Virus record (IMG/VR): IMGVR_UViG_3300042475_004015
Location: 1 to 62,625 of that record
Strand: one strand, 5' to 3'
Source: a virus
Lineage: Duplodnaviria > Caudoviricetes
Length of the DNA: 62,625 nt
Positions 1 through 62,625 of the stretch are shown here, piece after piece. The translations under genes and the position numbers were made by a program. A model generated the notes under the pieces. The model was not told the origin of the DNA. It ran no database searches and saw nothing but the letters and a program-made list of their open reading frames with translations. Position 1 is the stretch's first letter. Each line of letters begins with the position of its first letter.

Positions 1-127
1 ATCAGAGAATAAAGGGTTTGAGACACTACAGGGTGCCGGTCATAAATAACTGACCGTTTATCCTGTAGGTATTTTTTTACTCTTTCGTTAATCTCGCCTG
101 GGTATTTTTCTCTACCTTCACTAGCCC
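1..127. repeat. 127-bp terminal direct repeat (circular assembly overlap), left copy
   Basis: 1-127 is identical to 62499-62625; a CDS reads through the junction. Confidence 0.95.
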
Positions 128-215
128 TAATCGGCATATTAAAGGCTTCAGACAAGACTTTAGCTAGAGTGGATTTACCAGAATTGTCTGGGCCTTCAAG
201 TACGATAGTAGTCAT
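1..215 (-). CDS. 5' part of P-loop dNMP kinase / MazG-like pyrophosphatase fusion (continues at 62498-61793)
   Basis: ATG at 215 gives MTTIVLEGPDNSGKSTLAK...IYDRHPVVSQTLYSLI, in frame with the 61793-62524 ORF through the overlap; Walker A and DR motif of NMP kinases. Confidence 0.88.
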   Translation of the reverse strand, partial: MTTIVLEGPDNSGKSTLAKVLSEAFNMPIRASEGREKYPGEINERVKKYLQDKRSVIYDRHPVVSQTLYSL

Positions 216-485: not shown

Positions 486-2322
486 CTACTTCTTTATCAG
501 CACAAAATCAGCCGATAAGAAGTGGTATGATAAAGCCTTTCATAGGAGTGAGTTAAAAAAGGTAAGAGAATACATAGAGGATAATCTAGACAAAGACGTT
601 TATTGGTGTCCTCATGGTTTTTCTAAACCTTTTCGTCAAAAGAGGTTTTCAGTACCGCCTTTCCTATTATGGGCTGACCTAGATGAGGCTAATCCTAGCG
701 AAATACCAGTAAAGCCATCGGTAGCTTGGGAGTCTTCACCTGGTAGATATGCCTGTGTTTGGCTTGTAGATGAAAAAATAACCGACACTGTTAATCAAAG
801 ACTTACACAGTTTGTAGGGGCAGATCCCGGTGGGTGGGATTACACTCAGGTGCTTAGGGTACCTGGCACTAGGAATTATAAATACAGTAGCTCACCAAAA
901 GTTAGGTATATACTAAAAGATGGACCCTCTTATAGCTATAAAGAATTAATTAAGAGTATACCAAAAGCTAAAGAGGTCAAAAAAGAAGAACATGACTCAT
1001 CTGCTATCTTTAAAAAATATGAAAAGCAACTATCACCATTCGTTAGAAAAGAGTTGCTTAATGGTAAGCCGCAAATAGGTAAGAGAAGTGAAGTCTTCTG
1101 GAAATTAGCTAACGAATTAGTAGAAAGTGGTGTATCACGAGAAGAGACTAAAATACTATTAGCCAATTCTGTATGGAATAAATTTAAAGGTCGAAATGAC
1201 GAAGATCGCCAACTAAATGATGCTATAGAAAAAGCAGTGGAAGAAAAATTCAGTAAAAAAGATACTGAAGAAGAGCCCTATAAGTACCTATCAAAAACTT
1301 TAGAAGACTATGACGACGAAGAGACGGATTGGATAATACCGGGGTGGCTAGCAGCGAGTGAAGTAAATATACTACAGGGTGACCCCGGTATCGGAAAAAG
1401 CCAGTTAGCTCAGTACTTTGCAGGATGTATAGCTGATGGTAGAACTTTCCCTACAGATAAAAGGATGAAGCCTGTAGTAGGCTCTGTAGCATTGTTTGAT
1501 CCAGAAAATAGTCCATCTATAGTTACACGAAAGAGGATGAGGAATAATGGCTTTAAGTGCCTTAATAAGATCTTCTGTGAGGTTCAATCCTTTCAGCTAG
1601 ATGATGAAGCTACAGTAAATTATGTGATGGAGAGGCTTGATTCTGTAAAGGACTTAAAGCTTGTTATTTTTGATACCATCGGAAACTTTACTGGCTCTGT
1701 AGATACTCATAAAGGTTCCGATGTTACCAAAATGTTTTATGTTTTAAAACAGATAGCTATAAGGAAAAGGTGTTCAGTTTTAGTGCTTGCTCACCTTAAC
1801 AAGAGTAAAGGTAACTCTGCACTCTACAAAGGTATGGGAAGTATAGCATCAGCCGGTGCCGCAAGGATCGTAAACCAAGTAGCAAAACACCCTGTAGATG
1901 AGAATGTTTTAGTATTATCACAAGTTAAAAATAACCTAGGGCCTCACCAAAAGAGTAGGGTTTTTACTATCGAAAATTTACCGGATTTATTAAATGAAAC
2001 AGATAGATGTAAGATTATAATAGGTGACACAATAGATTTAAGTGCGGATGATGTTCTTAACTCAGATAAACACAAGGAGCAAAAGCCGGATGATCTACAG
2101 CAAAAAATAGAGGCCTGTATTGATTGGTTAGACATGATTTTAGGTGAAGGGCCCGTTGAGGCAGTGAAAGTTCAAACTGCATCTGATAAGAAAGGTTTTA
2201 GCAAGAGAGTACTACAATCCGCTTGCGAGACTATGGGTGTTATAAAAGATAAGAAAGGTTTTGGCGGTAAATCCTACTGGGGTTTACCAGGCAGTACTGC
2301 TAAAAAAGATAACCTTGAGTAG
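448..2322 (+). CDS. Primase-helicase (RepB-type primase + AAA_25/RecA-like helicase)
   Basis: LWADLD, WESSPGRY, LRVPGTRNYKY primase motifs; Walker A GDPGIGKS; LVIFD Walker B; HLNK. Confidence 0.85.
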   Translation: MLILQIWAKQPGDYFFISTKSADKKWYDKAFHRSELKKVREYIEDNLDKDVYWCPHGFSKPFRQKRFSVPPFLLWADLDEANPSEIPVKPSVAWESSPGRYACVWLVDEKITDTVNQRLTQFVGADPGGWDYTQVLRVPGTRNYKYSSSPKVRYILKDGPSYSYKELIKSIPKAKEVKKEEHDSSAIFKKYEKQLSPFVRKELLNGKPQIGKRSEVFWKLANELVESGVSREETKILLANSVWNKFKGRNDEDRQLNDAIEKAVEEKFSKKDTEEEPYKYLSKTLEDYDDEETDWIIPGWLAASEVNILQGDPGIGKSQLAQYFAGCIADGRTFPTDKRMKPVVGSVALFDPENSPSIVTRKRMRNNGFKCLNKIFCEVQSFQLDDEATVNYVMERLDSVKDLKLVIFDTIGNFTGSVDTHKGSDVTKMFYVLKQIAIRKRCSVLVLAHLNKSKGNSALYKGMGSIASAGAARIVNQVAKHPVDENVLVLSQVKNNLGPHQKSRVFTIENLPDLLNETDRCKIIIGDTIDLSADDVLNSDKHKEQKPDDLQQKIEACIDWLDMILGEGPVEAVKVQTASDKKGFSKRVLQSACETMGVIKDKKGFGGKSYWGLPGSTAKKDNLE

Positions 2323-2335
2323 TAAACTAGAAGAA

Positions 2336-2370
2336 ACCCACTAGATTATTAGTCTAGTGGGCTTATTTTT
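2336..2370. terminator. Hairpin terminator between convergent genes
   Basis: CCCACTAGA-ttattag-TCTAGTGGG followed by ttattttt. Confidence 0.7.
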
Positions 2371-2383
2371 AGTATAGGTGTTA

Positions 2384-3169
2384 CTAAACTTTTGGGTATT
2401 TTGAAGTGATAAACTCTTCAGGTGCTACTAGGTCAGCGAAGATAAGGGGGAAGATTTCCTTAGCGTATGGTAGAATACAAAGACTTAGCCTTCTGATTTC
2501 AGCATCAGCACCCTCGCCACCTCTTAATTCTAAAAAGTGTCTTAATGCTCTTAGGTTACAAGTCATTACCAGCCTTGTTTCTGCAGCATTGGGTAGTAAA
2601 GATCTAGCTGTTTCATTGATACGCTTTTTAAGCTTACTAGGTACTTTAACGTCTGAGTTTATATACCCTAAGTCTTTTTGAAGGTTAATGTAAGCCTGTA
2701 AGCTATGGTCACAAGCAGTCTTAAAGTTATTAATAAGACCCTCATCATTCAAGTCAACTAACAAGGGCGGAATAACAAACTTTAGGTCTTTAGCATCTAC
2801 ATACCGTTGGGACTCTTGACTCCATGCAAAGCCAGCTCTATGACGAACAAGCTCGTGACTACAGGAACGTGAGATACCAGAGATAGCGAAGGAGATGCTT
2901 GAGTGCTCAAGAACAGAGCCGTGTCTTTGCTCTAGAATGTTCTCGATATACTGTTTGCTATCACGACCCTTTTCCCAGGACCGGTAGCAGTGTCTACCAG
3001 CAAACTCAACTAGCGCATCTGGTACCTTAGAAGTAAACAACTGATGTAGCGGGGTAGACTCGTTATCAGCTAGATCGCCTAAACTATGATAATCGACCCA
3101 GTAATCCAGGTTTTCATGACTCATCGTAGACCAAGCAATGGGTACTACTGTAGGTTGTGTAAGATACAT
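2384..3169 (-). CDS. thyX: Flavin-dependent thymidylate synthase
   Basis: HGSVLEH, SHELVRHR...SQESQRY, NLRALRHFLELR, AEIR motifs. Confidence 0.95.
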   Translation of the reverse strand: MYLTQPTVVPIAWSTMSHENLDYWVDYHSLGDLADNESTPLHQLFTSKVPDALVEFAGRHCYRSWEKGRDSKQYIENILEQRHGSVLEHSSISFAISGISRSCSHELVRHRAGFAWSQESQRYVDAKDLKFVIPPLLVDLNDEGLINNFKTACDHSLQAYINLQKDLGYINSDVKVPSKLKKRINETARSLLPNAAETRLVMTCNLRALRHFLELRGGEGADAEIRRLSLCILPYAKEIFPLIFADLVAPEEFITSKYPKV

Positions 3170-3714
3170 AGATTCATAATCCTTTTAAAGTTAGCTTGAA
3201 GAGATATTAATACACTGGCTTGATCCATAGTCAACCCGACATCTTCTGGTAAACCCAGTGTAGAATACTGGCCTTCAACAGCCATATACTTTTTTTCTTT
3301 TTTTAAAGTAGCTTCATAACCCCCTTTATTAAACTCTTTTTTAGCAGCTGCTATAACCTCCCTAATAAAGGTATACGAGCCTATAAGTTTAGCTTTATCC
3401 CAGTGATTACCTATACTAAGAAGATAGTAATTTTTACTTCCACCCCAAAGCCCGCCACGGGTTATCACTAACCTAACATAGTCAACATGATCCGTTACCC
3501 AAAAGCCAAAAACGTAACTCCAACCCTCACCCATAAGAAGCTCGTCAGCTTTAGGTAGATTAGCGATCTGTATTTGATCTAAAAGTAAGTGCCTTAAATA
3601 CTCTGAGCTTGATATACTCAGTTTATGACATTGGTCTTCAATAAAGGCTCTATGATCTTCAGTGATAGAGGTATTGATAGTTACATCTTTATTCTTAAGT
3701 TTCTTGATTGACAT
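3145..3714 (-). CDS. Hypothetical protein with N-terminal ribbon-helix-helix-like segment
   Basis: INTSITEDHRAFIEDQCHKLSISSSEYLRHLL; GAGG upstream. Confidence 0.5.
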   Translation of the reverse strand: MSIKKLKNKDVTINTSITEDHRAFIEDQCHKLSISSSEYLRHLLLDQIQIANLPKADELLMGEGWSYVFGFWVTDHVDYVRLVITRGGLWGGSKNYYLLSIGNHWDKAKLIGSYTFIREVIAAAKKEFNKGGYEATLKKEKKYMAVEGQYSTLGLPEDVGLTMDQASVLISLQANFKRIMNLCILHNLQ

Positions 3715-3776
3715 AGTGACCTCTTTATTTAGGTTATAGTTAAGTTATTATAGATAAGATAGAGGTGAATGATACT

Positions 3777-4298
3777 TTAGATGCTTTGGATATAAGTACA
3801 CCATTGTGGTGCATTACGTTTTGTCCATTTTGGTAGAAGTTTATCAGCGGGCCAACGGGCGTTTAAATATGTACGATAAGCTTCAATAAGAGGTAGGTGT
3901 TTAAAGTCTAAGTCACGCTTTTTAGAAGCAGCAGCATTATAGAATTGTGGTAGATAACCGATAGGTAAGTTATTAATAAAAAGCTTTTCAAAAGGTTGTT
4001 TCATCTCATCGATAGTTTTATGGGACTTTTCAAACCTGTAGACATACTCATCGCATAATGCTATAAAATGTCTGTAAACCCAATATAGATTATCATAACT
4101 ATCAATAGCTTTTTGAGTTATTTGTGACTTTAGGTGACAGTCTTTATAAAGCTTCATATCACCAGTATCAATTTGTGGGTGACGTTTAATAGCGGTGCAC
4201 AAAAGCTGACAATTCTCAAGCACCATTTTACGGACTCGTTTATCATCGAGTGCCTGAGCGCTAAGTACAGGGCAATAATCGGTTACAAAAAGGTTCAT
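3777..4298 (-). CDS. Pyrimidine-dimer DNA glycosylase (Pyr_excise/DenV-like) family protein
   Basis: MNLFVTDYCPVLSAQALDDKRVRKMVLENCQLL, EYVYRFEKSH, AYRTY..K..WT.R..P.W family motifs. Confidence 0.75.
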   Translation of the reverse strand: MNLFVTDYCPVLSAQALDDKRVRKMVLENCQLLCTAIKRHPQIDTGDMKLYKDCHLKSQITQKAIDSYDNLYWVYRHFIALCDEYVYRFEKSHKTIDEMKQPFEKLFINNLPIGYLPQFYNAAASKKRDLDFKHLPLIEAYRTYLNARWPADKLLPKWTKRNAPQWCTYIQSI

Positions 4299-4425
4299 AA
4301 AAAAACTCCTATCAAGAGTTGAATCTTAATAGGAGTCAAGTTATAACACAACACCTTTACACTGGTATTCATTTAAGACACAACCCTTAAATGAACAACA
4401 CGATTTATCATAAACACAGGCATGA

Positions 4426-4725
4426 TTAATTGATACTATTATTTAATGAGTTTTTAATGGCTTCATAGTCGGTATTTAACTGTTCTACAGTTCCTTCATC
4501 TAAGGCCATTTTGCATGATAGCATAAGGTTTAACACTACACTAAGAAACATGACCTTGGAGACGTTAGAATCTGGTAGGCACTTAATCAGCTGATCGTGA
4601 GCTATGGTGTTAAGTGTAGACACAGCTTCGATATAGGAAAAGGCTGCTTCGGTAGCTGTATTTTTAACAGAGGCTTCTACGGCTATACTGTTAATAAACT
4701 TAATGGCTTCATTTTCAATGTTCAT
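4426..4725 (-). CDS. Hypothetical protein
   Basis: ORF coupled to the upstream exonuclease; GGAG upstream of the ATG at 4725. Confidence 0.55.
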   Translation of the reverse strand: MNIENEAIKFINSIAVEASVKNTATEAAFSYIEAVSTLNTIAHDQLIKCLPDSNVSKVMFLSVVLNLMLSCKMALDEGTVEQLNTDYEAIKNSLNNSIN

Positions 4726-5251
4726 TTTTAAGGTCTCCAATGATTTTACAGATCAAGTTAATCTGTGATTTACAGTCGTCTACAGCCTTGTGGGCTGTAC
4801 CTACTTTATCAGCGATAGCATCTTTTCTATACCTTATTCTGTAGAGCTCTTGAGCCGTTCGTATATCCATACACTTCTTGTAGTTAATAGGGCTTCTGTA
4901 GCCAAAAGCCTGTAGTAGAGAGTTAAGAAGGGGTATATCAAACGTAGCATGAGACCACACATAAGTATCCCTATCGATCATACTATCAATACAATCAATT
5001 AAAGAGGAGATAGGGTAACTATCCATTTTAAAGATTTCACGAGCTTCATTCGACTGTTTTAACCACCATTTAATAGTGGATGGGTCGGTAGTAAGCCCGG
5101 CTTTTATCTGCTCGGTCATTGATAGGTGTATATGTAGAGTCTTCAGGGGAGTAGGGTTAGGCGGATCAAATAGCACTATAGCAACATGAGTAACTACACA
5201 TCCAGGGGATTTACCCATAGTCTCTAAGTCAAGCATTGCGTGTATTGTCAT
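4715..5251 (-). CDS. DEDDh 3'-5' exonuclease (Rv2179c-like)
   Basis: MLDLETMG, WSHATFDIPLL, DIRT, HKAVDDCKSQ. Confidence 0.85.
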   Translation of the reverse strand: MTIHAMLDLETMGKSPGCVVTHVAIVLFDPPNPTPLKTLHIHLSMTEQIKAGLTTDPSTIKWWLKQSNEAREIFKMDSYPISSLIDCIDSMIDRDTYVWSHATFDIPLLNSLLQAFGYRSPINYKKCMDIRTAQELYRIRYRKDAIADKVGTAHKAVDDCKSQINLICKIIGDLKNEH

Positions 5252-5553
5252 TTTTTTACCCTACTTTCAAGAATGGTTATTTTAGCTTCTAGGACACCTC
5301 TTTCCCTTTCGCAGTGTATCAGGCTAACCTGCAGTGTATTAACCTCTTTCTCTAGGGCAACTATTTGAGACCTAAGGGAATCTACATGGTTCATTAAGCT
5401 TGATTGGAAGCTTAGATTATTCTTCATAGTTTGCTGATTAAGGTCACGCCTTTGGACCTGTATGGTTTTCACAGCAGCAACAACTGAAGCTAATATAGAC
5501 GCAAGTACTATGCCAAGGTCTTTTAGGGTTTGAAGTTCAAGTTCGATAACCAT
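5248..5553 (-). CDS. Single-TM coiled-coil membrane protein
   Basis: Hydrophobic GIVLASILASVVAAV followed by a heptad-rich tail. Confidence 0.55.
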   Translation of the reverse strand: MVIELELQTLKDLGIVLASILASVVAAVKTIQVQRRDLNQQTMKNNLSFQSSLMNHVDSLRSQIVALEKEVNTLQVSLIHCERERGVLEAKITILESRVKK

Positions 5554-10847: not shown

Positions 10848-11336
10848 GTGTCTACTAAAGAGTTTTTAAGTCAAGAGTACCTAGAGCTGATGATCCTAAG
10901 GGGCATTACTGACTTTACTGGGCTTCACCTAGGCGGTTTAAAAGCCATGGGTGTTGATTTTAGTAAAGCCTTTTTTAATAATACAAACTTAAATGGTGTT
11001 GATTTTAGAGAAGCTAGGTTCTTTAAAAACAAGGATGTTTTTATCGACTGTTTTATGATAGAAACTATCTTTAAAAGCTGTGACTTATCCAAGGTAGGTT
11101 TCTTTCGTAATCAAATGGCTCGTAGCGATTTTCAGTTGGCCGACTTAACGGGCTCAGACTTTGTTGAGTGTGACCTAAGAGGTGCTATTTTTAATAACGC
11201 TACTTTAAAAAAGACCGTATTTAAAGAATGTATTTTAGATGATGTAAACTTTAGTAGGTCGAGTACACTTGAGGATGCTTCTTTTATTAACTGCATTTTA
11301 GGTGGAGTAACCGTCCGTACAATTAAGATGGTGTAA
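10848..11336 (+). CDS. Pentapeptide repeat protein
   Basis: TNLNG VDFRE ARF; SDFQL ADLTG SDFVE CDLRG AIFNN ATL; TTGACA-N16-TATGAT upstream. Confidence 0.9.
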   Translation: MSTKEFLSQEYLELMILRGITDFTGLHLGGLKAMGVDFSKAFFNNTNLNGVDFREARFFKNKDVFIDCFMIETIFKSCDLSKVGFFRNQMARSDFQLADLTGSDFVECDLRGAIFNNATLKKTVFKECILDDVNFSRSSTLEDASFINCILGGVTVRTIKMV

Positions 11337-22527: not shown

Positions 22528-22600
22528 AAATTCATCATAAATTCATCATAAATTCATCATAAATTCATCATAAATTCATCATAAATTTATCATAAATTTA
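22528..22600. repeat. 11-bp tandem array AAATTCATCAT (5 perfect plus variants)
   Basis: Direct reading of the sequence. Confidence 0.95.
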
Positions 22601-22757
22601 TATCAATTTTTAATTAAATAATATCCCTAAAATATATATCAAATTTTATATAAAAATAATCATATATCAAAATGAATTTGAATCAACCTTTTTTGTGTGT
22701 TGTGTTGTGTGACATATATATATGTATAAATTTTTTTCACCCCCATACATTTTTTTG

Positions 22758-22855
22758 TTGCATCATGAAAAAAAATTTTTTAATGTGATTTTATTGATCA
22801 TCACACAACACACAATGATCATGTTCAACACAACACAAAATGAAATGACACAATC
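22758..22855 (+). promoter_or_regulatory. Island promoter 1 and leader
   Basis: TTGCAT-N17-TAATGT; leader ends CAACACAACACAAAATGAAATGACACAATC-ATG. Confidence 0.65.
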
Positions 22856-23290
22856 ATGAAAAATACACACAACACAAAACAAAAAAAACATTTAAACATT
22901 GTTTCAAATGATGAAACAATTTTAAATGATGTTTCACATGAAACAATTTTAAATGATGTTTCAAATGATGAAACAAAAATCAATTTAAATGAATTTCAAC
23001 AATTTAAACATTTTGAAAATATCAAATTGTTTATTGAAACAAACAAAAATGATTTTTTCAAATTGACACAAATTGCAAAATTAATACAATGTGATGCAAA
23101 AACATTGAGACAAAAATTTAGAAAAATTTATGCAATTTTTGATCAATCAAAATTGACACAAATTGTTGCATCACAAAATGACAATGAAAAATGGTTGTTT
23201 GCATTTAATGAAAAAAATTTATTAAATGTTTTGAAAATGTCATACATGCAAAATATAAAAATTGAAATGCAATTATTAAAAATTGCATAA
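22856..23290 (+). CDS. Island ORF1, HTH DNA-binding protein (no Pro or Gly)
   Basis: KLTQIAKLIQCDAKTLRQKFRK...KWLF; own promoter and terminator; N-terminal 30-bp repeats. Confidence 0.75.
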   Translation: MKNTHNTKQKKHLNIVSNDETILNDVSHETILNDVSNDETKINLNEFQQFKHFENIKLFIETNKNDFFKLTQIAKLIQCDAKTLRQKFRKIYAIFDQSKLTQIVASQNDNEKWLFAFNEKNLLNVLKMSYMQNIKIEMQLLKIA

Positions 23291-23305
23291 TCAATACATG
23301 AAATG

Positions 23306-23344
23306 ATTGTGTGATATGTGAAAATGTATCACACAATTTTTTTT
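23306..23344 (+). terminator. Intrinsic terminator of island ORF1
   Basis: ATTGTGTGATA-N10-TATCACACAAT plus T-run. Confidence 0.8.
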
Positions 23345-23364
23345 CATCATCATTCATTTTTTTG

Positions 23365-23456
23365 TTGCATGATGAAAAAAAATATGACATGATATAAACA
23401 TGATCAAAACAAAATGATCATGTTCACAACACAACACAAAATGAAATGACACAATC
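23365..23456 (+). promoter_or_regulatory. Island promoter 2 and leader (duplicate of promoter 1)
   Basis: TTGCAT-N17-CATGAT with extended TG; same leader end as promoter 1. Confidence 0.65.
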
Positions 23457-23921
23457 ATGAAAAACACAATACACATAATGAACACAATGAACATAAAACA
23501 CAACATCACATTTGATGTGAATGATGAAAATTTTAATATAAATGATGTTGATTTTTATCATAAAAACATATTTGATGATATGTATAATCAATATAAATTA
23601 AACATTGATAAAATTGAATACAATGAACATGAAAAAAATTTTTTTCATCATTTTATAAATTTATTTGATAAAAAACAATTTAATAAAATTGTTATTGATT
23701 TTTTGTATATTATGAATCAATTTTGTGAACAACACACAAAAAATGATAAAAACATTTTTTTGCAAAATGTTTTATTTGAAAATGATTTTTATGAATATAT
23801 CAATAAAATATGTTTTGACAATTTATGTGATATTGATGATTTGTTTTGTTTGATTGATCATCATGATGATTATAATGATGTTCAATGTGATATATTATTT
23901 AATAACATTGTAAACAATTAA
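23457..23921 (+). CDS. Island ORF2, acidic Asn/Asp/Phe-rich protein (no P, G, R, W, S or A)
   Basis: 154 open codons in very AT-rich DNA; duplicated leader; terminator. Confidence 0.7.
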   Translation: MKNTIHIMNTMNIKHNITFDVNDENFNINDVDFYHKNIFDDMYNQYKLNIDKIEYNEHEKNFFHHFINLFDKKQFNKIVIDFLYIMNQFCEQHTKNDKNIFLQNVLFENDFYEYINKICFDNLCDIDDLFCLIDHHDDYNDVQCDILFNNIVNN

Positions 23922-23978
23922 ATCAATGTATTCATGATGATGTATATTGTTATATAATGCACATTATGACAAATCAAT

Positions 23979-24017
23979 AAATGATGCAACACATAAAAAT
24001 GTTGCATCATTTTTTTT
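23979..24017 (+). terminator. Intrinsic terminator of island ORF2
   Basis: AAATGATGCAACA-N8-TGTTGCATCATTT plus T-run. Confidence 0.85.
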
Positions 24018-24091
24018 ATTTATATATATCAAATTTTATTTAATCTTTATACACATTTAATGTGTATTGCAACCTTTTAATAATACATACA

Positions 24092-24160
24092 ATTTAATAT
24101 ATATTTAATACATATTTAATACATATTTAATACATATTTAATACATATTTAATATATATT
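24092..24160. repeat. 11-bp tandem array ATTTAATA(C/T)AT x6
   Basis: Direct reading of the sequence. Confidence 0.9.
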
Positions 24161-24382: not shown

Positions 24383-25336
24383 ATGTCACACGAAATCGAA
24401 ACTATCGCATATACGAATGAAGTACCTTGGCACGGCCTTGGGACTTATATCCAAGATGCACCCTCTGTAGACGACATGCTAATAAAAGCAGGACTTGATT
24501 GGACTGTAGTGAAAGCTCCAGTACACGCTGAACACGATACCGGCCTTGTATCAACTAACGAACATTTTGCTCTTGTTCGTAGCACTGACGGCAAAATACT
24601 TGACGTCTGTGGAAAACACTACATCCCAGTACAAAATCGGGACGCTTTAGGGTTCTTTCGATCCTTTGTAGAGGCTGGCGATGCTACTCTTGAAACTGCG
24701 GGTTCACTAAAAGGCGGTAGAAACATTTGGGGACTAGCTAACCTCGGTCAAAACTTCCACCTGAAGAACAACACATCCGACCAATTAAAGTCGTACTTGC
24801 TTATCTCTTCACCTCACGAGGTCGGTAAATCACTACAGATTAAATTTACTTCTGTCCGTGTAGTGTGTAACAACACGCTAACCCTTGCTTTAAACTCGGC
24901 TGCTCAATTCCGTATGTCTCACAGAGTGCAGTTCGACGAGTTCAATCAAGAGCGAGCTCGTGAAGTACTTGGCATTGCAAGAGATGAGTCTAAACAGTTC
25001 GAGCAAACAGCTAATCTACTCTCTACACAAAAATTGTCTCATGATGACATTATCCGAGTGCTACAACCCGTCTATCAACCTGACCATAATCCTGTAGATC
25101 TTATTAATAGTTCCGACAAGTACTTGTCACCAACTATTAAAGCGATCATGTATGCTAACGAAAATGCACCAGGTGCCGACCCCACCACTGCATGGGGACT
25201 GTTAAATGCAGTAACATACTACTCCGACCATGTAGCATCTAGGTCTGTAGATAAACGCATGTATAACGCATGGTTCGGCAAAACTGCTAATCATAAAGAA
25301 AAAATACTTAACACGCTAGTTTCTATGGCTGCATAG
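24383..25336 (+). CDS. DUF932 / TIGR03299 phage-plasmid protein
   Basis: VPWHGLG, AGLDWTV, Y.PVQN, ETAGSLKGGR, RVVCNNTL, TAWGLLNAVT. Confidence 0.92.
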   Translation: MSHEIETIAYTNEVPWHGLGTYIQDAPSVDDMLIKAGLDWTVVKAPVHAEHDTGLVSTNEHFALVRSTDGKILDVCGKHYIPVQNRDALGFFRSFVEAGDATLETAGSLKGGRNIWGLANLGQNFHLKNNTSDQLKSYLLISSPHEVGKSLQIKFTSVRVVCNNTLTLALNSAAQFRMSHRVQFDEFNQERAREVLGIARDESKQFEQTANLLSTQKLSHDDIIRVLQPVYQPDHNPVDLINSSDKYLSPTIKAIMYANENAPGADPTTAWGLLNAVTYYSDHVASRSVDKRMYNAWFGKTANHKEKILNTLVSMAA

Positions 25337-56126: not shown

Positions 56127-57084
56127 TTTTAAGACCTTTGTTTTCTACTTTATACTGACCTTTTATTATCATGTCTACGTCCGAGCCAGTCAGTTCAGCT
56201 CTACAGATAGATTCATAGTCACAAAATTTGCAGTGCATTCCGATGTTTTTTACCTTTTTCTTTCCATGATTCTCCACTAATTCCTGGGCGCTGTCAATAA
56301 AATCTTTATAGACAGACTCCACTATACTCTGGTTAATTGGAGTGAATACCCTTATAAAATAGTTAGATAGGTTTTGCTGTGCAGCGTCTATTAGCTTCTT
56401 AGAGAAGTTTGGATCATAGCCCTGTTCTTCAGCATACCTACGGATAACACCCGGCAATGTGTTGAGTTTAGCCTCTGATAATTTACCGCTTTTTAATATC
56501 CTGGGTATCTCAGGTGCACCGCTGTGGATATAATCCCAACACATGCCGTCAGCCTCAGCTAACCCAGTAATCTGTAGAGCTTTTAGGTATACAGCTGACT
56601 GAATGTTTCTCCATCTTTCATCATTAGCGGGCATCCGGTTAAAGGTTTTATGCTCTACTACCCATACTAACTTATTAGCTGTTTTAGCTATAGCATCTAT
56701 CTTACCAGTAAAGATAATACCATCAGCTATCTCTATATTAAACTCATGTTCAGCATACCTACCGCCCCTTCTAAGATAAAAGAGTGAGTCATCACCCCAG
56801 TACTCAAAGTACTCCATCATGATGTTTCGGATATCATTTATAAGATCGCCGTATAACTCATACTCTTCTTGGAACATTTTACCCTTTTCAGCCTCGATAG
56901 CATCCAGTTTTTTAAAGGGATCCCTATTGTTAGCCTGTTCTTCTATTAGTTCATGAATTATTCCACCAAACGTAAAAGGTCTTTTAATAGTCTTTTTTCT
57001 TAAAAGCTCTACATACTTCTGATGATAAGCAAACTGACATTGACGCCAGGTCTTAATTTTTGATTGACTTACTTTGACTTCCAT
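56110..57084 (-). CDS. PD-(D/E)XK Cas4/RecB-like exonuclease
   Basis: SQS.I..WRQC, GKIDAI, VEHKT, Q..VY, CKFCDYESIC. Confidence 0.88.
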   Translation of the reverse strand: MEVKVSQSKIKTWRQCQFAYHQKYVELLRKKTIKRPFTFGGIIHELIEEQANNRDPFKKLDAIEAEKGKMFQEEYELYGDLINDIRNIMMEYFEYWGDDSLFYLRRGGRYAEHEFNIEIADGIIFTGKIDAIAKTANKLVWVVEHKTFNRMPANDERWRNIQSAVYLKALQITGLAEADGMCWDYIHSGAPEIPRILKSGKLSEAKLNTLPGVIRRYAEEQGYDPNFSKKLIDAAQQNLSNYFIRVFTPINQSIVESVYKDFIDSAQELVENHGKKKVKNIGMHCKFCDYESICRAELTGSDVDMIIKGQYKVENKGLKNENTK

Positions 57085-59546
57085 TTTTCTAAACTAACTC
57101 CTTTGCTCCATGGACCAATCTGTGCTTCACCCAGTATGGGGACCCGAAGGTCAACACCAAACTCTTCTAATAGGTCAGGGCCAGACATCACCTGTAGTAT
57201 CCTGTTATAAACTTCTTCTACATACTCATCTTTAACCAAAAACATAGTAGCATCATGAACTGTACCAATAACCCTAACTTTGTCTACACCATATTCTCTA
57301 GAGATCTGCAGGGCAGTCATTAGGTTTAGGTCATTAGCGAATGATTGAACGGGTGAATTAATAGCTTGCCTTTCAGCTTCTTTCTTACCTGGTGTATCAT
57401 AAGTAGCTTTAGCTTCTGGTAATCTTCTCTTTCTACCGATAAGGCTTTCTACATAACCATACCTTTTTGCAAAGCTTTTTTGTTCATTATGCCATTCCAA
57501 AAACTTTGGGTATAGTTCAAAGAAGGCATCTCGGCTAGCTCTAGCTTCATCGTCAGTAACAGTTACCCCATAATTATCACGAGCATAGTCTTTAAACTTT
57601 ACCCACCACATGCCATACAAAAACCCAAAGTTAATAGCTTTAGCTTTTTTTCTTAACTCTTTCCAACCCTTATCAAATTCTTGAGATTTTTCAGGGCCAT
57701 ACTTTAATAGTACCTGTATAGCCTCGCCATAATTAAGGGGCTTATCTGGGAGTACGTCATACTTTTTTAGTAAGCAAGTAGCTGTATGTTTTATTAACTC
57801 AGGTTGACTACCCTGCCTACCTAACTCCCTTATCAAGGTTAACCAGTGAACATCTACACCTGTAGCAAAAGCGTGTAACATAGTTGTCTCATTAGCTACC
57901 TCAGCAGCTACTCTTAACTCAATTTGTGAAAGGTCAGCGTCTATTAATTGCCAACCTTCGGGTGCTGTTATTAAGGACCTTATTCTTGGATCCCGTGGTA
58001 CTTGCTGTAGGTTAGGTCTTTCACAAGATAACCTGCCGGTCACTGTACCATGAAGCTTAAAGCTAGGGTGTAGTGTACTGTCTACAATAAAGGGTTTCCA
58101 GCCTTCAATGAAAGCACTCAGTTGTTTTGATGCCTCTCGGTATCTTAGTAGTGAGGCACACATGGGATGGTCTATTTGTTTAATAACAGACTCGCTTGTA
58201 GCTCTACCGCCTTTAGGTGTGTATGACACTACAGGTATATTAAGCTTATCATAGAGTAGCTCACCAAGCTGTTTAGGTGAATTCCAGTTTGTACCTGGGC
58301 CCCACTTTTCAAGTACTTTTAATGCTTCAGTAAGCTCATTCTTTAGGTAGTCCTCAGCATCCTGCATTTTTGACAGGTCAATATAGATACCGTAGTATTC
58401 TATAGTTATAAATAACCTTACACAGGGCATAATGATTTTATCAAAGACCCTTTTAGTTTTAGGCTCTTTAGCTAACCTTTTGCTAAATATACTATAAAGC
58501 TTTAAAGTGTATAATAAGTCTAGCCCATGATACTTAGATACTACTTCTAAAGTACCGCTAATTTTATCCTCACCACCAATGTCATAACTCGGTGCACCAC
58601 AGTAAATAGTAGCTAAGTATTTTAAACCATGTTGACTATTTTCATCCAATGAATAGTGAGCCATCATAGTATCAAAGTCTAAGTACCAATCTACCTTATA
58701 GTGTACTTTCATCCATAGCATATCAAACTTGCCATTATGAGCAACAAGAATACAGTCTTGAAGTTTGTCGGTTAACTCTCTTACTATCGCTTTTCTGTTA
58801 CGATAACCCCATAAGGAGTATTGTTTGGCTAAAGGGATAGACCATTGAAAATTCTTAGTACCAAAGCCGATAAAGTTTATCTCTGCACCATTATCCCATG
58901 GATAAAGACCAGTAGTTTCTATATCAAAAGACACTACACCCTTAAGGTCATTCATCATCTCGTCAAAGGTTTCGTCATCATTTACGACCCTAAGGTTAAG
59001 TGATTCTTCTTCTAATAATCCGCCGTTTTGAATTAAACTGCTAAAAGTTGATAAGTCAGCCTCAACTACAGAGGATAATGCTGGGTCATATAAAAGGTTA
59101 CTTATAGAATAAGTTGGCATATATACTATATCGTTAACCTTAAGCGGTTTACCTCTAGCTTTCTTTATACCCTTTATCTCAAGTGCCGATTGCAATGCTA
59201 CGTTACCTAGCAGTAGGATAAATTTAGGCTTAACTAACTCTATCTCTTTTTGTAGCCAATACCGACAAGCATTTATCTCAGTCTTTGTAGGGTCTTTATC
59301 ACCAGGTTTTCTACAGTGAACTGCGTAGGTATAATAGTAGTCTTGTATACCTGCACTAGATAACAGATCGTGAACACTCTGACCATACTTGCTACTATAA
59401 GCTCTATCACATTCATCATCCTCCCGAGAAGGCGAGTCAATGATAACCATCACTAATGACTTAACATCTGTAGAGTAGTTACCTAATAAGCATACACTTT
59501 GGCAACCAGAGGACAGTTTACATTTAGTACAGTTTATATCCCTCAT
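57069..59546 (-). CDS. polA: Family A DNA polymerase with N-terminal UDG-like domain and 3'-5' exonuclease
   Basis: FDIETTG, HNGKFD, TGRLS, DLSQIELR, KAINFGFLYG, VHDA; N-terminal C..C.L...CR...EI.AC. Confidence 0.95.
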   Translation of the reverse strand: MRDINCTKCKLSSGCQSVCLLGNYSTDVKSLVMVIIDSPSREDDECDRAYSSKYGQSVHDLLSSAGIQDYYYTYAVHCRKPGDKDPTKTEINACRYWLQKEIELVKPKFILLLGNVALQSALEIKGIKKARGKPLKVNDIVYMPTYSISNLLYDPALSSVVEADLSTFSSLIQNGGLLEEESLNLRVVNDDETFDEMMNDLKGVVSFDIETTGLYPWDNGAEINFIGFGTKNFQWSIPLAKQYSLWGYRNRKAIVRELTDKLQDCILVAHNGKFDMLWMKVHYKVDWYLDFDTMMAHYSLDENSQHGLKYLATIYCGAPSYDIGGEDKISGTLEVVSKYHGLDLLYTLKLYSIFSKRLAKEPKTKRVFDKIIMPCVRLFITIEYYGIYIDLSKMQDAEDYLKNELTEALKVLEKWGPGTNWNSPKQLGELLYDKLNIPVVSYTPKGGRATSESVIKQIDHPMCASLLRYREASKQLSAFIEGWKPFIVDSTLHPSFKLHGTVTGRLSCERPNLQQVPRDPRIRSLITAPEGWQLIDADLSQIELRVAAEVANETTMLHAFATGVDVHWLTLIRELGRQGSQPELIKHTATCLLKKYDVLPDKPLNYGEAIQVLLKYGPEKSQEFDKGWKELRKKAKAINFGFLYGMWWVKFKDYARDNYGVTVTDDEARASRDAFFELYPKFLEWHNEQKSFAKRYGYVESLIGRKRRLPEAKATYDTPGKKEAERQAINSPVQSFANDLNLMTALQISREYGVDKVRVIGTVHDATMFLVKDEYVEEVYNRILQVMSGPDLLEEFGVDLRVPILGEAQIGPWSKGVSLEKWKSK

Positions 59547-60007
59547 GGCATTATTACCTTATTGTTAGAGTGATCGAGTAGATATCCTGATGGGGTAACT
59601 TGGTATACTTCTATACCGCTTTTAATCAATAGTGCTAATGATGTGGTATCTCTGTATGCTACTTCATAATATACAGCTTTAATGCCAGCAGCCATTAGTT
59701 TTTCAGCACACACTAGGCACGGTGAGTGTGTTACATAAATTGACTTATCTTTAGCCCATTCACTATTTGGGATAAACCGTATAGCATTATCCTCGGCATG
59801 AAGACTTTTACTGCATCCACCACTTGTTGATAAAGGGCAGTGATTACCTTTGCAGTGTTCTTCACCTGATGGTGAGCCATTATAGCCAATAGAAACTACA
59901 CGGTTCTCTACAACTATAACACAGCCTACATTTAAGCGATGGCAGGTAGACCGTTTTGAGGCTGAACGGGCCATTTCCATAAACATCTGGTTACGACTTA
60001 TTCTCAT
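59543..60007 (-). CDS. dCMP deaminase
   Basis: RSTC, GYNG, HAE, PCLVC. Confidence 0.93.
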   Translation of the reverse strand: MRISRNQMFMEMARSASKRSTCHRLNVGCVIVVENRVVSIGYNGSPSGEEHCKGNHCPLSTSGGCSKSLHAEDNAIRFIPNSEWAKDKSIYVTHSPCLVCAEKLMAAGIKAVYYEVAYRDTTSLALLIKSGIEVYQVTPSGYLLDHSNNKVIMP

Positions 60008-60016
60008 AGGGTTGCT

Positions 60017-60856
60017 TTATTTAGGTGAACCAAAAAGTGTGATGTAGTCATTTACAAACAAGTGTAGGCTTACGATGTGCATAGTAAAAAGTCCAGGCCT
60101 AATTTTGTTCCAATAGTCTGGGTCCCTTAGTCTTAGTTGGTCAAGTACCCAAAGTTGTAGTAGTACAGTCAAGTAAATGTCATCTCTAAAGTGTCTAACA
60201 AAATCACAAGACCTTAGGTAGTAAGTGATGTGTAACTTATCCTGCCTTACTATAAAATGATACCCTAAACTACATGGTATTCTACCGCCATTAACACAGC
60301 CAGTATCCTCTGGGAAAAAGACTGGTAAATAAGCTTGCCTTGTAAGTGGCTGTTCTTTTAAAAGTTTCACCAAGTCGTTAAGATCACCCAATATCGTATC
60401 AGGCCTTACACCTCTATTAAACTTAAAGTGGTCATGGTATGGACTTGTAGGGTCACATATAGTACCACTAAGCTCACCTTGATCGGTTAACCCAGCATAA
60501 GTCGGCCAATATCTCTCCATATAGTTATGGTTAAATTGACCGTTAGCATCACGGAACTTATCGGCAGAGTGACTGTAGGGCCAGTTTGCCCACTCTTTAC
60601 CAGGGTTAAGGGGCTCACCACATACTCTTTCCTTAAAGTGGTCATCCGCCCACGGTAAGTTTGGCTGTATTGCTTTAGCTAATACCGACCTGTCTTCAGT
60701 CTGAACTTCGCAAGTAAAAGAGTGGTTTAATAACTCATAAGTAGTCATAGCACCTTGTTTTGATATGTCTAAACCTTGCCATTTTTCGGTGTGAACTTTA
60801 TAAGACTTATTTTTAAGCCTTATTTTAGCATCTTCTATATATACTTCAAAACTCAT
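60017..60856 (-). CDS. ThyA-fold nucleotide C5 modifier, probably dCMP (hydroxy)methylase
   Basis: TRQAY, IPC, RSCDFVRHFRDD (Asp at the Asn177 position), SLHLF. Confidence 0.8.
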   Translation of the reverse strand: MSFEVYIEDAKIRLKNKSYKVHTEKWQGLDISKQGAMTTYELLNHSFTCEVQTEDRSVLAKAIQPNLPWADDHFKERVCGEPLNPGKEWANWPYSHSADKFRDANGQFNHNYMERYWPTYAGLTDQGELSGTICDPTSPYHDHFKFNRGVRPDTILGDLNDLVKLLKEQPLTRQAYLPVFFPEDTGCVNGGRIPCSLGYHFIVRQDKLHITYYLRSCDFVRHFRDDIYLTVLLQLWVLDQLRLRDPDYWNKIRPGLFTMHIVSLHLFVNDYITLFGSPK

Positions 60857-61619
60857 TTAGGTAATCCTTTGCTAGTTTTATTATTCTTCTTGTTTCTGCT
60901 GGGTAAAGTAAAGAGCGAGCCCTATCTCTTGTAACAGTAGCTTGTTTAAACTTTAATATACCCCTATCGTCGTCAAGGTATTTTAACGTCCACCTCATAA
61001 CATAACGAGAAAACCTATCACTCTTATCGAGTGCCTTATAAAACTCCATAGGAGAGTCATAGAGTGCAGCTGCCGTAAGAAAATACATAGGATGAAGAGT
61101 GATATTTGCAAAGTGACAATTTACACTCTTTAGCTTAACCTCTTTAAAGTTAAAACCTGGTATCAAATTGTTATAGATAAAGTAAAGATCAGCAGGAAAC
61201 TTTTTAAAAAGTTCGGTAGTCCTGTAGAAGATATCCATCTCAGCATGGTCTTTGTCTAGGTGGGAAATAACCACCGACTGTAAACAGGGCCCTCTTGTGC
61301 TTACTTTTTCTAATGGGGAGGTTGCACCGGGTTTTATCAAGTGATTATAACAATGGAAAGATGTGCTAGAGTATTTACCTCTTTCTACAAAATAATCCCA
61401 CATTTGGATAGCCTTGTCATAACTTTCCTGATGTAGGTACAATTTTTTAAGCATACTGATCTTGGTTTTAGTATAGCCAATATCCAATAGATCAATATCG
61501 GAGGTTGGTGACTCAAAACGAATACTCCTTGAGCGAAAAATCTTCCTTTCGGCAGCGTATAAGTCACCCGGTTGACCCACTAATAATAAACAAGCATTAA
61601 GCCATTGATTAGTTAGCAT
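60846..61619 (-). CDS. Second, highly divergent ThyA-fold protein
   Basis: GPCLQSVVI...FYRTTELFKKFPADL...HFANITLH parallels PC...RSxD...N/D...H. Confidence 0.6.
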   Translation of the reverse strand: MLTNQWLNACLLLVGQPGDLYAAERKIFRSRSIRFESPTSDIDLLDIGYTKTKISMLKKLYLHQESYDKAIQMWDYFVERGKYSSTSFHCYNHLIKPGATSPLEKVSTRGPCLQSVVISHLDKDHAEMDIFYRTTELFKKFPADLYFIYNNLIPGFNFKEVKLKSVNCHFANITLHPMYFLTAAALYDSPMEFYKALDKSDRFSRYVMRWTLKYLDDDRGILKFKQATVTRDRARSLLYPAETRRIIKLAKDYLNEF

Positions 61620-61800
61620 TAATTATGCCCCCTTTAAAGATATTGATAAGGTTATCATGGTTATTTTTAACCTCCTCTGGCTCGCTAGCTGTTTCAACTA
61701 CAAACTCGTCACTATATAGTTCAGAGTTAGTATACTCTACTACAGCCAATAAACCTTTAAGTAGGTCATTTTCTGTTATGGTAATTTGTTTATTAGTCAT
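61609..61800 (-). CDS. Small acidic hypothetical protein
   Basis: Overlaps both neighbours in the operon. Confidence 0.55.
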   Translation of the reverse strand: MTNKQITITENDLLKGLLAVVEYTNSELYSDEFVVETASEPEEVKNNHDNLINIFKGGIINAN

Positions 61801-62625
61801 AAGAAGGGTCTTTCAATAAATCTATAAGTACAGGAGCTTTCCAGCCTTGTGGTTTAACTACGTCAAGAACAGAGCCTCTTTTACTTTGAGAACTATCAGT
61901 TGCACGAATTTTAGCCATATTGGCTGCATGAACTCTCTCCCAACCCTTAATAAAAGGAAAACCATGTAGATAAGCAGTACCCAATAATACATAAGCTAAG
62001 TCTACAAGGCCGTCAAATGCCTTTTCTAAATGCTCTAGAGATTCTGGTGACTGATAACCAGGCAAAGCTATTTGATTAATAGTATTATGATAGTTCTTCA
62101 TAGCTTCTACATACTCGTCGAGTTCTTCCTGCATAAACTTTATCCTAAAGTCTTCCATATCACCAGGTAAGGCTCGTGGGCCTGACTCATAATCTAGGCC
62201 AAACTTCTGATGAAAGAGTGCTATGTCTACTACTGGATTAAAAGCATAAATACGACTTATTAAGTCAGGTATACTATCACCTATCCGGTAAATAAGGTGG
62301 GCATTATTAACTGCCCAATCATCATACTCAGCACTAAGTGAGTCGTATTTTTCATCGATTAAGTTTAGATATTCCGGCTCATCATATTCTTTATTTACGT
62401 GGCCTTCCATTCTGTTAAGTGCTTTACAGTAAATAAATATAGGCTTAGAGCTATAAAATTGATCTACAAGCTCATCATCTATTTTTGTATTCTTAACTAT
62501 CAGAGAATAAAGGGTTTGAGACACTACAGGGTGCCGGTCATAAATAACTGACCGTTTATCCTGTAGGTATTTTTTTACTCTTTCGTTAATCTCGCCTGGG
62601 TATTTTTCTCTACCTTCACTAGCCC
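61793..62625 (-). CDS. 3' part of kinase / MazG-like (PRA-PH) dNTP pyrophosphatase fusion (306 aa in total, start at 215)
   Basis: FHQKFG, QEELDEY, DGLVDLAYV, VHAANMAK, KPQGW..P. Confidence 0.88.
   Translation of the reverse strand, partial: ASEGREKYPGEINERVKKYLQDKRSVIYDRHPVVSQTLYSLIVKNTKIDDELVDQFYSSKPIFIYCKALNRMEGHVNKEYDEPEYLNLIDEKYDSLSAEYDDWAVNNAHLIYRIGDSIPDLISRIYAFNPVVDIALFHQKFGLDYESGPRALPGDMEDFRIKFMQEELDEYVEAMKNYHNTINQIALPGYQSPESLEHLEKAFDGLVDLAYVLLGTAYLHGFPFIKGWERVHAANMAKIRATDSSQSKRGSVLDVVKPQGWKAPVLIDLLKDPSYD
62499..62625. repeat. 127-bp terminal direct repeat, right copy
   Basis: Identical to 1-127. Confidence 0.95.

Follow-up and report, generated by a model that had tools for sequence, protein, structure and literature searches.

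Replacement of cytosine in the nucleotide pool is a main phage defence against restriction and clustered regularly interspaced short palindromic repeat (CRISPR) nucleases. The hydroxymethylcytosine (hmC) pathway of phage T4 comprises the deoxycytidine monophosphate (dCMP) hydroxymethylase gp42, the deoxynucleoside monophosphate (dNMP) kinase gp1, the deoxycytidine triphosphate (dCTP) hydrolase (dCTPase) gp56, the deaminase cd, and td. In the 5-methylcytosine (5mC) phages XP12 and PaMx74, a pyrophosphohydrolase, a ThyA homologue with Asp at the position of E. coli Asn177 (N177), and a deaminase form a neighbourhood (gp53-gp52-gp51 in PaMx74), and the contig family of this type has been empirically flagged as cytosine-modified. 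In MetaGPA work, viral contigs with modified cytosine were reported to carry ThyA homologues with Asp at N177 close to genes for dCMP deaminase, PRA-PH, and PolA (PMC8670742; bioRxiv 10.1101/2024.12.05.627091). A neighbour of this kind is given for 104 of the 149 deaminases on modified contigs versus 17 of the 277 on unmodified contigs, and deaminases located beside N177D ThyA homologues are described as preferring 5mC nucleotides and yielding dT (bioRxiv 10.1101/2024.12.05.627091). Here, we describe the IMG/VR record IMGVR_UViG_3300042475_004015, a complete phage genome of 62,625 bp that was analysed over its whole length (hereafter, the window), in which a minus-strand operon encodes two proteins of ThyA fold, namely open reading frame (ORF) 2 and ORF3. 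An initial annotation, made from the letters of the window by themselves, had read this operon as one for cytosine modification, and its gene set is indeed the neighbourhood enriched on cytosine-modified viral contigs in the MetaGPA studies. Our best reading, which we regard as evenly poised, is that the operon is a T4/XP12-type, pre-replicative nucleotide-pool pathway replacing dC by C5-modified dC, in which ORF3 would be a dependent second enzyme. The genes concerned are as follows ((-), minus strand; aa, amino acids).

61793..62625 (-): kinase-MazG, codons 30-306, i.e. the rest of a Tmk-like domain and a PRA-PH/MazG all-alpha nucleoside triphosphate pyrophosphohydrolase (PF01503)
1..215 (-): 5' end of kinase-MazG (ORF 3..215(-)); start codon at 213-215, P-loop GPDNSGKST
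61609..61800 (-): 63-aa ORF, overlapping both neighbours; no family matches
60846..61619 (-): ORF3, second ThyA-fold protein, 257 aa; no Pfam family, fold from an AlphaFold2 (AF2) model
60017..60856 (-): ORF2, divergent ThyA-family enzyme (putative), 279 aa (PF00303 22.5 bits; phrog_160 2.7e-28)
59543..60007 (-): dCMP/dCTP-family zinc deaminase, 154 aa (PF00383 78.7 bits, cut-off 25; phrog_174 1.8e-48)
57069..59546 (-): UDG-PolA, family A DNA polymerase (DNA polymerase I) carrying a 3'-5' exonuclease and, at its N-terminus (residues 29-156), a uracil-DNA glycosylase (UDG)-superfamily domain (PF00476 1.3e-71, PF01612 3.7e-16, PF03167 2.5e-18)
2384..3169 (-): ThyX, flavin-dependent thymidylate synthase (TIGR02170 152.2 bits, cut-off 87.9; PF02511 175.6 bits; phrog_85 1.2e-58)

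The logic and the activity set of this operon are like those of the T4 pathway. Both have a ThyA-fold enzyme with Asp at N177 (predicted to act on dCMP in the window), and in both it is accompanied by a kinase (putative in the window), a pyrophosphatase for the removal of dCTP, a deaminase, and a thymidylate synthase (TS) encoded by a further gene. Unlike T4, the window has two ThyA-fold proteins instead of one, Arg rather than Asp/Glu at the position of Leu143, a kinase fused to the pyrophosphatase, and ThyX instead of td. The neighbourhood is the same as that of XP12/PaMx74, but PaMx74 has a single ThyA homologue, which keeps R126/R127, E58, and Y209 and shares only 27% identity with ORF2 across 107 residues; of the 15 phage records with an ORF3 relative, none is a PaMx74 or Xanthomonas record.

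The window has a GC content of ~38% and is present in 24 listed lake or freshwater metagenome runs, in all of them as contigs, with no RNA run listed. Bases 1-127 are identical to bases 62499-62625, forming a 127-bp direct terminal repeat, so that genes leaving the record end resume at base 128; the kinase-MazG ORF, open at the end of the window (61793-62623(-)), resumes at 215..128(-), giving a joined product of 306 aa. In the direction of transcription, the gene order is kinase-MazG, the 63-aa ORF, ORF3, ORF2, dCMP deaminase, UDG-PolA, a PD-(D/E)XK/Cas4-like nuclease, and an AAA_24/Sak4-like ATPase. Neighbouring genes share 4 to 11 nt (4 nt between the PolA start and the deaminase stop, 11 nt between ORF3 and ORF2) or stand 9 nt apart, which argues for one operon. 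The ORFs of the two ThyA-like genes and the motifs quoted for them in the initial annotation were all found where it had placed them. Family scans covered 42 predicted proteins of 103 simple ORF calls, most small ORFs and structural genes being left out, and no glycosyl-, carbamoyl-, or other group transferase was detected among these 42.

ORF2, the sequence of which includes GGRIPCSLGYHF and YYLRSCDFVRHFRDDIYL, scored just under the gathering cut-off of PF00303 (24.3 bits), and the PHROG family that it matched is annotated as 'thymidylate synthase'. Searches of the PDB with a 42-sequence profile yielded AfhB (6.2e-6), MilA (1.2e-5), L. casei TS N229D (6.3e-5), and T4 dCMP hydroxymethylase (dCH; 1.5e-3), and MilA was the top match of the single sequence (0.0018). 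The AF2 model (predicted local distance difference test score, pLDDT, 85.4) is of the ThyA alpha/beta fold, with T4 dCH as the best Foldseek match (4.6e-11) and 396 PDB matches at ≤1e-3. Cys195 corresponds to the catalytic Cys146 of E. coli, and Arg215-Ser216-Cys217-Asp218 corresponds to the RSxD motif (R166-S167-x-D169), as placed by HMMER, hhalign, and MAFFT. The initial annotation had assigned Asp to the Asn177 equivalent from a manual alignment, and the same three programs support this assignment: Asp226 aligns with E. coli Asn177 and the PaMx74 Asp (MAFFT), L. casei N229D (HMMER), and T4 D179 (hhalign, FRDD to FRND). In E. coli numbering, ORF2 thus reads C146=C, R166=R, S167=S, D169=D, N177=D, W80=W, and Y94=Y. 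Among 78 relatives, little or no variation was found at the sites checked, including C195, R215, D218, and D226; C195 and the R215-D218 motif differ in at most one sequence. The canonical ThyA set Asn177, Arg126-Arg127, Tyr209, and Glu58 is replaced in ORF2 by D, R-Q, F, and N, respectively, with some uncertainty in the alignment column of Glu58.

According to a published residue rule, Asp177 denotes a cytosine substrate, a hydrophobic or acidic residue at the Leu143 position denotes a 'methyl' or 'hydroxymethyl' class, respectively, and a D169N substitution is diagnostic of flavin-dependent 5-hydroxy-dCMP synthases (PMC13326640). At the Leu143 position, ORF2 has Arg192 in 78 of 78 relatives, and the acidic residue of T4-type dCMP hydroxymethylases is absent; since this invariant Arg fits neither class, a methyl versus a hydroxymethyl product is not predictable. 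From its residues, ORF2 is predicted to be a putative dCMP C5 one-carbon transferase. Three other assignments were considered and rejected, i.e. TS (Asp177 and the presence of ThyX), 5-hydroxy-dCMP synthase (no D169N, Asp218 being kept), and deoxyuridine monophosphate (dUMP) hydroxymethylase (Asp instead of Asn at 177).

ORF3, which includes STRGPCLQS and FYRTTELFKKFPADLYF, has no Pfam or NCBIfam match and matched phrog_34294, a family of unknown function, at 9.5e-5. Sequence searches of the PDB yielded nothing from the single sequence (phmmer) or from either of two profiles, and hhalign gave probabilities of 0.2% and 1.4% against the ORF2 family and 0.15% against T4 gp42. The AF2 model of ORF3 (pLDDT 90.5; predicted template modelling score 0.87), in which residues 90-110 form a low-confidence loop, clearly has the ThyA fold. 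Its best Foldseek match is AfhB (9iqu; 7.2e-6), and there are 190 PDB matches at ≤1e-3, those listed being TS, MilA, T4 dCH, or AfhB. In VIA-align, Z was 13.5 for AfhB (183 residues, root-mean-square deviation 3.9), 13.0 for MilA, and 11-12 for many TSs, with 396 chains at Z≥8 and ~180 of the 257 residues aligned. The nearest models in BFVD are uncharacterised phage proteins (PMBT14, TM 0.82), followed by annotated TSs and dCMP hydroxymethylases. The claim of the initial annotation that both proteins have the ThyA fold is thus borne out by the AF2 models, by Foldseek for both and by VIA-align for ORF3. Its word 'paralogue' stands as far as structure is concerned but not by sequence, as there is no significant similarity between the two families.

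An exhaustive profile search with ORF3 yielded 309 clusters (50% identity) at E≤1e-3. Among database candidates, 627 of 1486 were relatives of ORF3 and 4404 of 4561 were relatives of ORF2 at E≤1e-3, indicating that both are real genes and not chance ORFs. Among 94 ORF3-family sequences that are 20-42% identical to the window protein, Lys53, Tyr61, Cys112 (in GPC), and Asp144 (in KKFPAD) are invariant, and Tyr49, Leu57, Lys96, Arg133 and Glu136 (in YRTTE), and Phe141 are nearly so. A non-significant hhalign alignment with the ORF2 family pairs Cys112 with Cys195, Arg133 with Arg215, Glu136 with Asp218, Asp144 with Asp226, and His176 with His265. In this register, ORF3 would keep the Cys nucleophile, an Arg166-type phosphate clamp, and the cytosine-reading Asp, and would have Glu136 at the D169 position, the D169N substitution being absent. 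In the model, Cys112 stands just before a strand, the following strand ends with Arg133-Glu136, and the helix after it has Asp144 in its first turn. The spacing between Glu136 and Asp144 is 8 residues, the same as that between Asp218 and Asp226 of ORF2 and, by numbering, between Asp169 and Asn177 of E. coli. Arg109, at the Leu143 position, is not conserved in the ORF3 family. As both the secondary-structure register and the invariance of Asp144 agree with the alignment, we consider it likely that ORF3 has a ThyA fold with its own Cys and a cytosine-type Asp; the Cys and the Asp that the initial annotation gave for both proteins are found again and are conserved, and for ORF3, the register from the non-significant alignment (E 0.036) is the same as the manual one. 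In the deposited records and UniProt entries examined, ORF3 relatives are 'hypothetical' or 'uncharacterised', with 'pyrimidine hmase synthase' in two records. In the literature searched (supplements lay outside the search), no description was found of the ORF3 family, of a module with two ThyA-fold genes, or of the subfamily signature of ORF2.

Two further types of characterised ThyA-fold enzyme are among the closest to these proteins. The 5-hydroxy-dCMP synthases (HY126 AfhB, 9iqu/9iqc; RB69 gp48; DLP3 gp80), which head the matches to ORF3 by structure and to ORF2 by profile, act on dCMP by non-folate chemistry; their D169N is absent here (Asp218 in ORF2, Glu136 in ORF3), as is an arabinosyl-/glycosyltransferase cluster among the proteins scanned. 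MilA, the cytidine monophosphate 5-hydroxymethylase of mildiomycin synthesis (5b6d/5jnh), also has Asp at the N177 position but, unlike ORF2 and ORF3, is a bacterial antibiotic-pathway enzyme with a ribonucleotide substrate and no phage context.

The distribution of the two genes is asymmetric. We analysed 56 ORF3 loci and 80 ORF2 loci from one collection (IMG/VR), partly on the same contigs, a limit that we count against our reading of the operon. ORF2 lies directly downstream of ORF3 in 55 of the 56 ORF3 loci, the one miss being a contig end, and the 56 loci also carry the deaminase (52), the kinase (49), MazG (47), and PolA (52, located after the deaminase). Of 398 ORF2 loci, the best 80 were taken, and upstream sequence of 800 nt or more is available for 75 of these; an ORF3-family gene is present in 62 of the 75 and absent from 13; the signature residues of ORF2 are the same in the ORF3-less loci. 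Two complete ORF2-only genomes were searched whole and gave no ORF3 match, whereas three positive controls were found. ORF2 can therefore occur without ORF3, and ORF3 was not seen without ORF2. The window-type kinase was detected in 51 of 65 loci with ORF3 versus none of 13 without it, and MazG in 44 of 65 versus 2 of 13.

Relatives of ORF3 are rare among deposited phages and were found in 15 of 50,697 records, including those of Brevundimonas phages Polewnik and Strzyga, Serratia phages Serbin, Tlacuache, and Opt-155, Yersinia phage P744, Pseudomonas/Stutzerimonas phages STP12, STP9, and Lebethron, a Desulfofustis phage, and two uncultured phages. Relatives of ORF2 were found in 116 records, including many actinophages. 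In every example examined (Polewnik, Tlacuache, P744, PMBT14, Muddy, Gibbous, and Zuko), the annotated gene order is kinase, MazG/'dUTPase', a hypothetical protein of 260-350 aa, 'thymidylate synthase', usually a deaminase, PolA, and a Cas4-like nuclease. The hypothetical protein of PMBT14 is an ORF3 homologue (probability 98.4%). The proteins in the same slot of the actinophages (Muddy gp47, Gibbous gp43, and Zuko gp75) matched a broad ORF3 profile over its N-terminal 128 columns with a probability of 94% (E 1.2e-7) as a three-sequence alignment in hhalign, whereas Muddy gp47 alone matched nothing in a narrow ORF3 profile and reached 65% with the broad one. They keep the G-x-C (G-S-C) and S-R-T motifs, with an Asp 11 residues after the Arg, and are probable remote homologues of ORF3, as judged from these alignments. 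Their loci are as follows.

L006 3940-4833: slot protein of Mycobacterium phage Muddy (gp47), upstream of an annotated thymidylate synthase
L067 4003-4911: actinophage slot protein, upstream of an annotated thymidylate synthase
L068 3901-4962: actinophage slot protein, upstream of an annotated thymidylate synthase

The cassette kinase-MazG-ORF3-ORF2-deaminase-PolA is also present in the cultured phages PMBT14, Serbin, and Polewnik, and probably in Muddy.

The remaining operon genes were assigned as follows. The family assignments of the deaminase, MazG, PolA, and ThyX are above curated cut-offs. The deaminase shows the HAE and PCxxC zinc motifs and scored 1e-32 with TIGR02571, under the cut-off of that model; it belongs by sequence to the dCMP-deaminase family, with dCMP or 5-methyl-dC nucleotides as putative substrates. 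The fusion of a putative kinase with MazG, which the initial annotation had noted, is real: one 306-aa product combines a Tmk-like P-loop N-terminus (phrog_761 thymidylate kinase, 5.1e-11 on the first 71 aa) with a PRA-PH/MazG C-terminus (PF01503 at residues 137-235, 33 bits with a cut-off of 21.3; phrog_671 6.2e-17). The match of the kinase to TIGR00041 (dTMP kinase) is weak, at 0.011 and 15.5 bits against a cut-off of 83, and was scored on fragments, as the gene spans the record ends. The 63-aa ORF had no matches in Pfam or PHROG, and in its C-terminal half it shows homology to the tail at the C-terminus of kinase-MazG from the nearest relative (L008), in which the kinase-MazG frame is continuous (2322-3356); in the window, ~97 nt are inserted, and with them come a stop codon and another ATG, indicating that this ORF is a split-off tail.

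ThyX and dCMP deaminase, both above curated cut-offs in this genome, cover the supply of thymidine monophosphate (dTMP), as the initial annotation had proposed. ThyX was found in four of five operon-bearing genomes searched (in three above the cut-off), and the only PF00303 proteins in these genomes are ORF2 homologues, with no further canonical ThyA, which argues that ORF2 is not the thymidylate synthase. With dTMP covered in this way, the operon is most simply read as a pathway like those of T4 and XP12, in which dC is replaced while still a free nucleotide. In such a pathway, the MazG domain, judging from its family and context, would hydrolyse dCTP to dCMP, clearing the canonical triphosphate and feeding the pathway. 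ORF2, as a folate-type enzyme, would then add a one-carbon group at C5 of dCMP. We tentatively suggest that ORF3 acts after ORF2 on the product of ORF2, and that Michael addition of its Cys to C6 may lead to a further derivatised dCMP. The fused Tmk-like kinase would phosphorylate the unusual dNMP, host nucleoside diphosphate kinase and phage PolA may complete the process, and the deaminase and ThyX would make dTMP separately. For ORF3, the existence of ORF2 without ORF3, the failure to see ORF3 without ORF2, the association of ORF3 with the kinase, and its active-site-like Cys, Arg, and Asp favour a dependent second enzyme, and the asymmetry in co-occurrence favours a sequential or dependent role. 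A chemical precedent may be provided by clade 2 aGPT-Pplases, in which a Cys attacks C6 of a 5-(phospho)hydroxymethyl pyrimidine to give an exocyclic methylene that is trapped by a nucleophile (PMC8989533). The likeness would be mechanistic only; unlike ORF3, these enzymes have a DNA-glycosylase-like fold and act on DNA, with uracil as the base. That ORF3 founds a new class of ThyA-fold enzymes, converting 5-(hydroxy)methyl-dCMP from ORF2 into a hypermodified dCMP via an exocyclic methylene at the free-nucleotide stage, with activation by the kinase, is a more doubtful proposal.

Several points weigh against the pathway proposed for this operon. ORF2 is under the Pfam gathering cut-off and differs from proven dCMP-modifying enzymes at R127 (to Q), Y209 (to F), G173 (to H), L143 (to R), and possibly E58 (to N; MAFFT, with the N-terminal part of the alignment uncertain). 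These departures are fixed in the family, the columns checked being identical in all 78 relatives. The residue register between ORF3 and ThyA comes from a non-significant hhalign alignment (probability 1.4%, E 0.036). The kinase and MazG tallies come from single-sequence phmmer queries, by which divergent kinases may be missed, and the 13 ORF3-less loci include near-duplicates, so that the independent count is smaller. In the literature searched, no base analysis of DNA from the phage or from its cultured relatives was found. In addition, the neighbour of ORF2 in one ORF2-only genome, G006, is a C5 DNA cytosine methyltransferase (L112 1943-4105), which would be without a substrate if all C were already C5-substituted. 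The methyltransferase gene is interrupted by an intein/endonuclease (PF00145, PF14890, PF18741).

ThyA enzymes are obligate dimers, the active sites of which borrow Arg126' and Arg127' from the partner subunit. ORF2 and ORF3 might accordingly be subunits of one heteromeric ThyA-type enzyme, with the heterodimer forming one complete active site that yields a single modified dCMP. Both proteins have the ThyA fold, their genes share 11 nt and are direct neighbours in 55 of 56 loci, and a partner could compensate for the loss of R127 and Tyr209 from ORF2 (to Q and F) in all 78 relatives. This arrangement is nevertheless unlikely: 13 of 75 loci and two complete genomes have an ORF2 of the same signature but no ORF3, so that ORF2 does not need ORF3, whereas ORF3 keeps an invariant Cys and Asp of its own, needless in a purely structural partner, and, by sequence and consensus, has no Arg-Arg pair at the position of the ThyA SRR loop, so that it could not donate the missing arginines. 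Complex prediction of ORF2 with ORF3 gave an ipSAE of 0.00 in both runs and, as controls were not folded, is no evidence either way.

A dTMP route through 5-methyl-dCMP or 5-methyl-dCTP has reportedly been proposed for XP12-type phages. By analogy, the two enzymes could work in parallel, ORF2 and the deaminase making dTMP via 5-methyl-dCMP or 5-methyl-dCTP, and ORF3, MazG, and the kinase making modified dC for DNA. The reported preference of deaminases beside N177D ThyA homologues for 5mC nucleotides, giving dT (bioRxiv 10.1101/2024.12.05.627091), is consistent with this division, as are the existence of ORF2 and deaminase without kinase or ORF3 and the presence of the kinase in 51 of 65 loci with ORF3 but in none of the 13 with ORF2 alone. 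We nonetheless consider it improbable, since ThyX in four of five operon-bearing genomes makes a second dTMP route unneeded, and ORF3 was not found without ORF2, unlike what parallel pathways predict. Even less probable is a non-catalytic or regulatory ThyA-fold protein, e.g. a nucleotide-binding regulator or a scaffold for deoxynucleoside triphosphate synthesis, in the place of ORF3. The low-confidence loop at residues 90-110 and the lack of detectable sequence similarity to ThyA families would fit such a role, but the invariance of Cys112 and Asp144 and near-invariance of Arg133 in sequences as divergent as the 94 compared form a typical active-site pattern, and the Cys and Arg persist in the actinophage branch.

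The window also contains an island, located at 22551-24151 (core 22700-23950) and with a GC content of ~20%, in which each C is followed by A and each G is preceded by T (CpA-only island). In successive 500-nt windows of the island, 61/61, 59/59, 52/52, and 36/36 Cs stand before A; the rule is broken by a 'caccccca' run near 22739 and by two arginine codons (AGA), located near 23107 and 23120. Under this constraint, no Gly or Pro codon is possible in the island, which carries ORFs at 22856-23290 and 23457-23921 (+), each located behind a near-identical upstream block of ~110 nt. The initial annotation had tied the CpA-sparing context to this operon, with the second paralogue as a candidate enzyme, and had proposed that the co-occurrence of operon and island be checked across phage genomes. 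A homologous island is present in the nearest relative (G001, 3201-5501), but the ORF3-ORF2 operon also stands in four other genomes, two of them complete and the others 96% and 88% complete, and no such island was found there, so that operon and island do not co-occur beyond this relative and the suggestion is not supported. That ORF3 or the pair acts context-dependently on DNA to produce this pattern is barely credible, as the only point in its favour is the co-location of both features in one genome, whereas the pattern is one of the base sequence itself, over a single 1.6-kb island, and does not come from the calling of modified bases, all four further genomes lack it, and the kinase and MazG argue for nucleotide-level chemistry. 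A nucleotide-pool pathway works on free nucleotides and cannot set a sequence-context rule; the pathway proposed here would be without such specificity and unrelated to the island. A tandem 11-nt unit (aaattcatcat) is located at 22530-22600, directly upstream of the island, and a DUF932 protein (24383-25336 (+); PF06067 1.8e-39, phrog_1221) immediately follows the island. A pentapeptide-repeat protein of 162 aa, possibly a DNA mimic, is encoded in the early region (10848-11336 (+); PF00805 6.8e-18).

Enzymes from cytosine-replacing pathways have been turned into tools, i.e. synthases for hmC, 5mC, and 5-hydroxycytosine, and 5mC-selective deaminases. The cassette described here is common, both in metagenomes and among cultured phages, some of which are related to phages used in therapy. 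The type of pathway is known, whereas the conserved second ThyA-fold gene and the signature of ORF2, which departs from every characterised ThyA subfamily at key residues, are new to the literature searched. If ORF3 does found a new class of ThyA-fold enzymes, a large overlooked group of phages of Proteobacteria, and probably of Actinobacteria, would carry an as yet undescribed cytosine hypermodification, with the therapeutic phage Muddy (gp47) as a candidate. The identity of the product would add a new modified base or show how two ThyA-fold proteins share one reaction. It would also give a reason why, on contigs of this kind, some of the ThyA homologues may lack activity if expressed by themselves.

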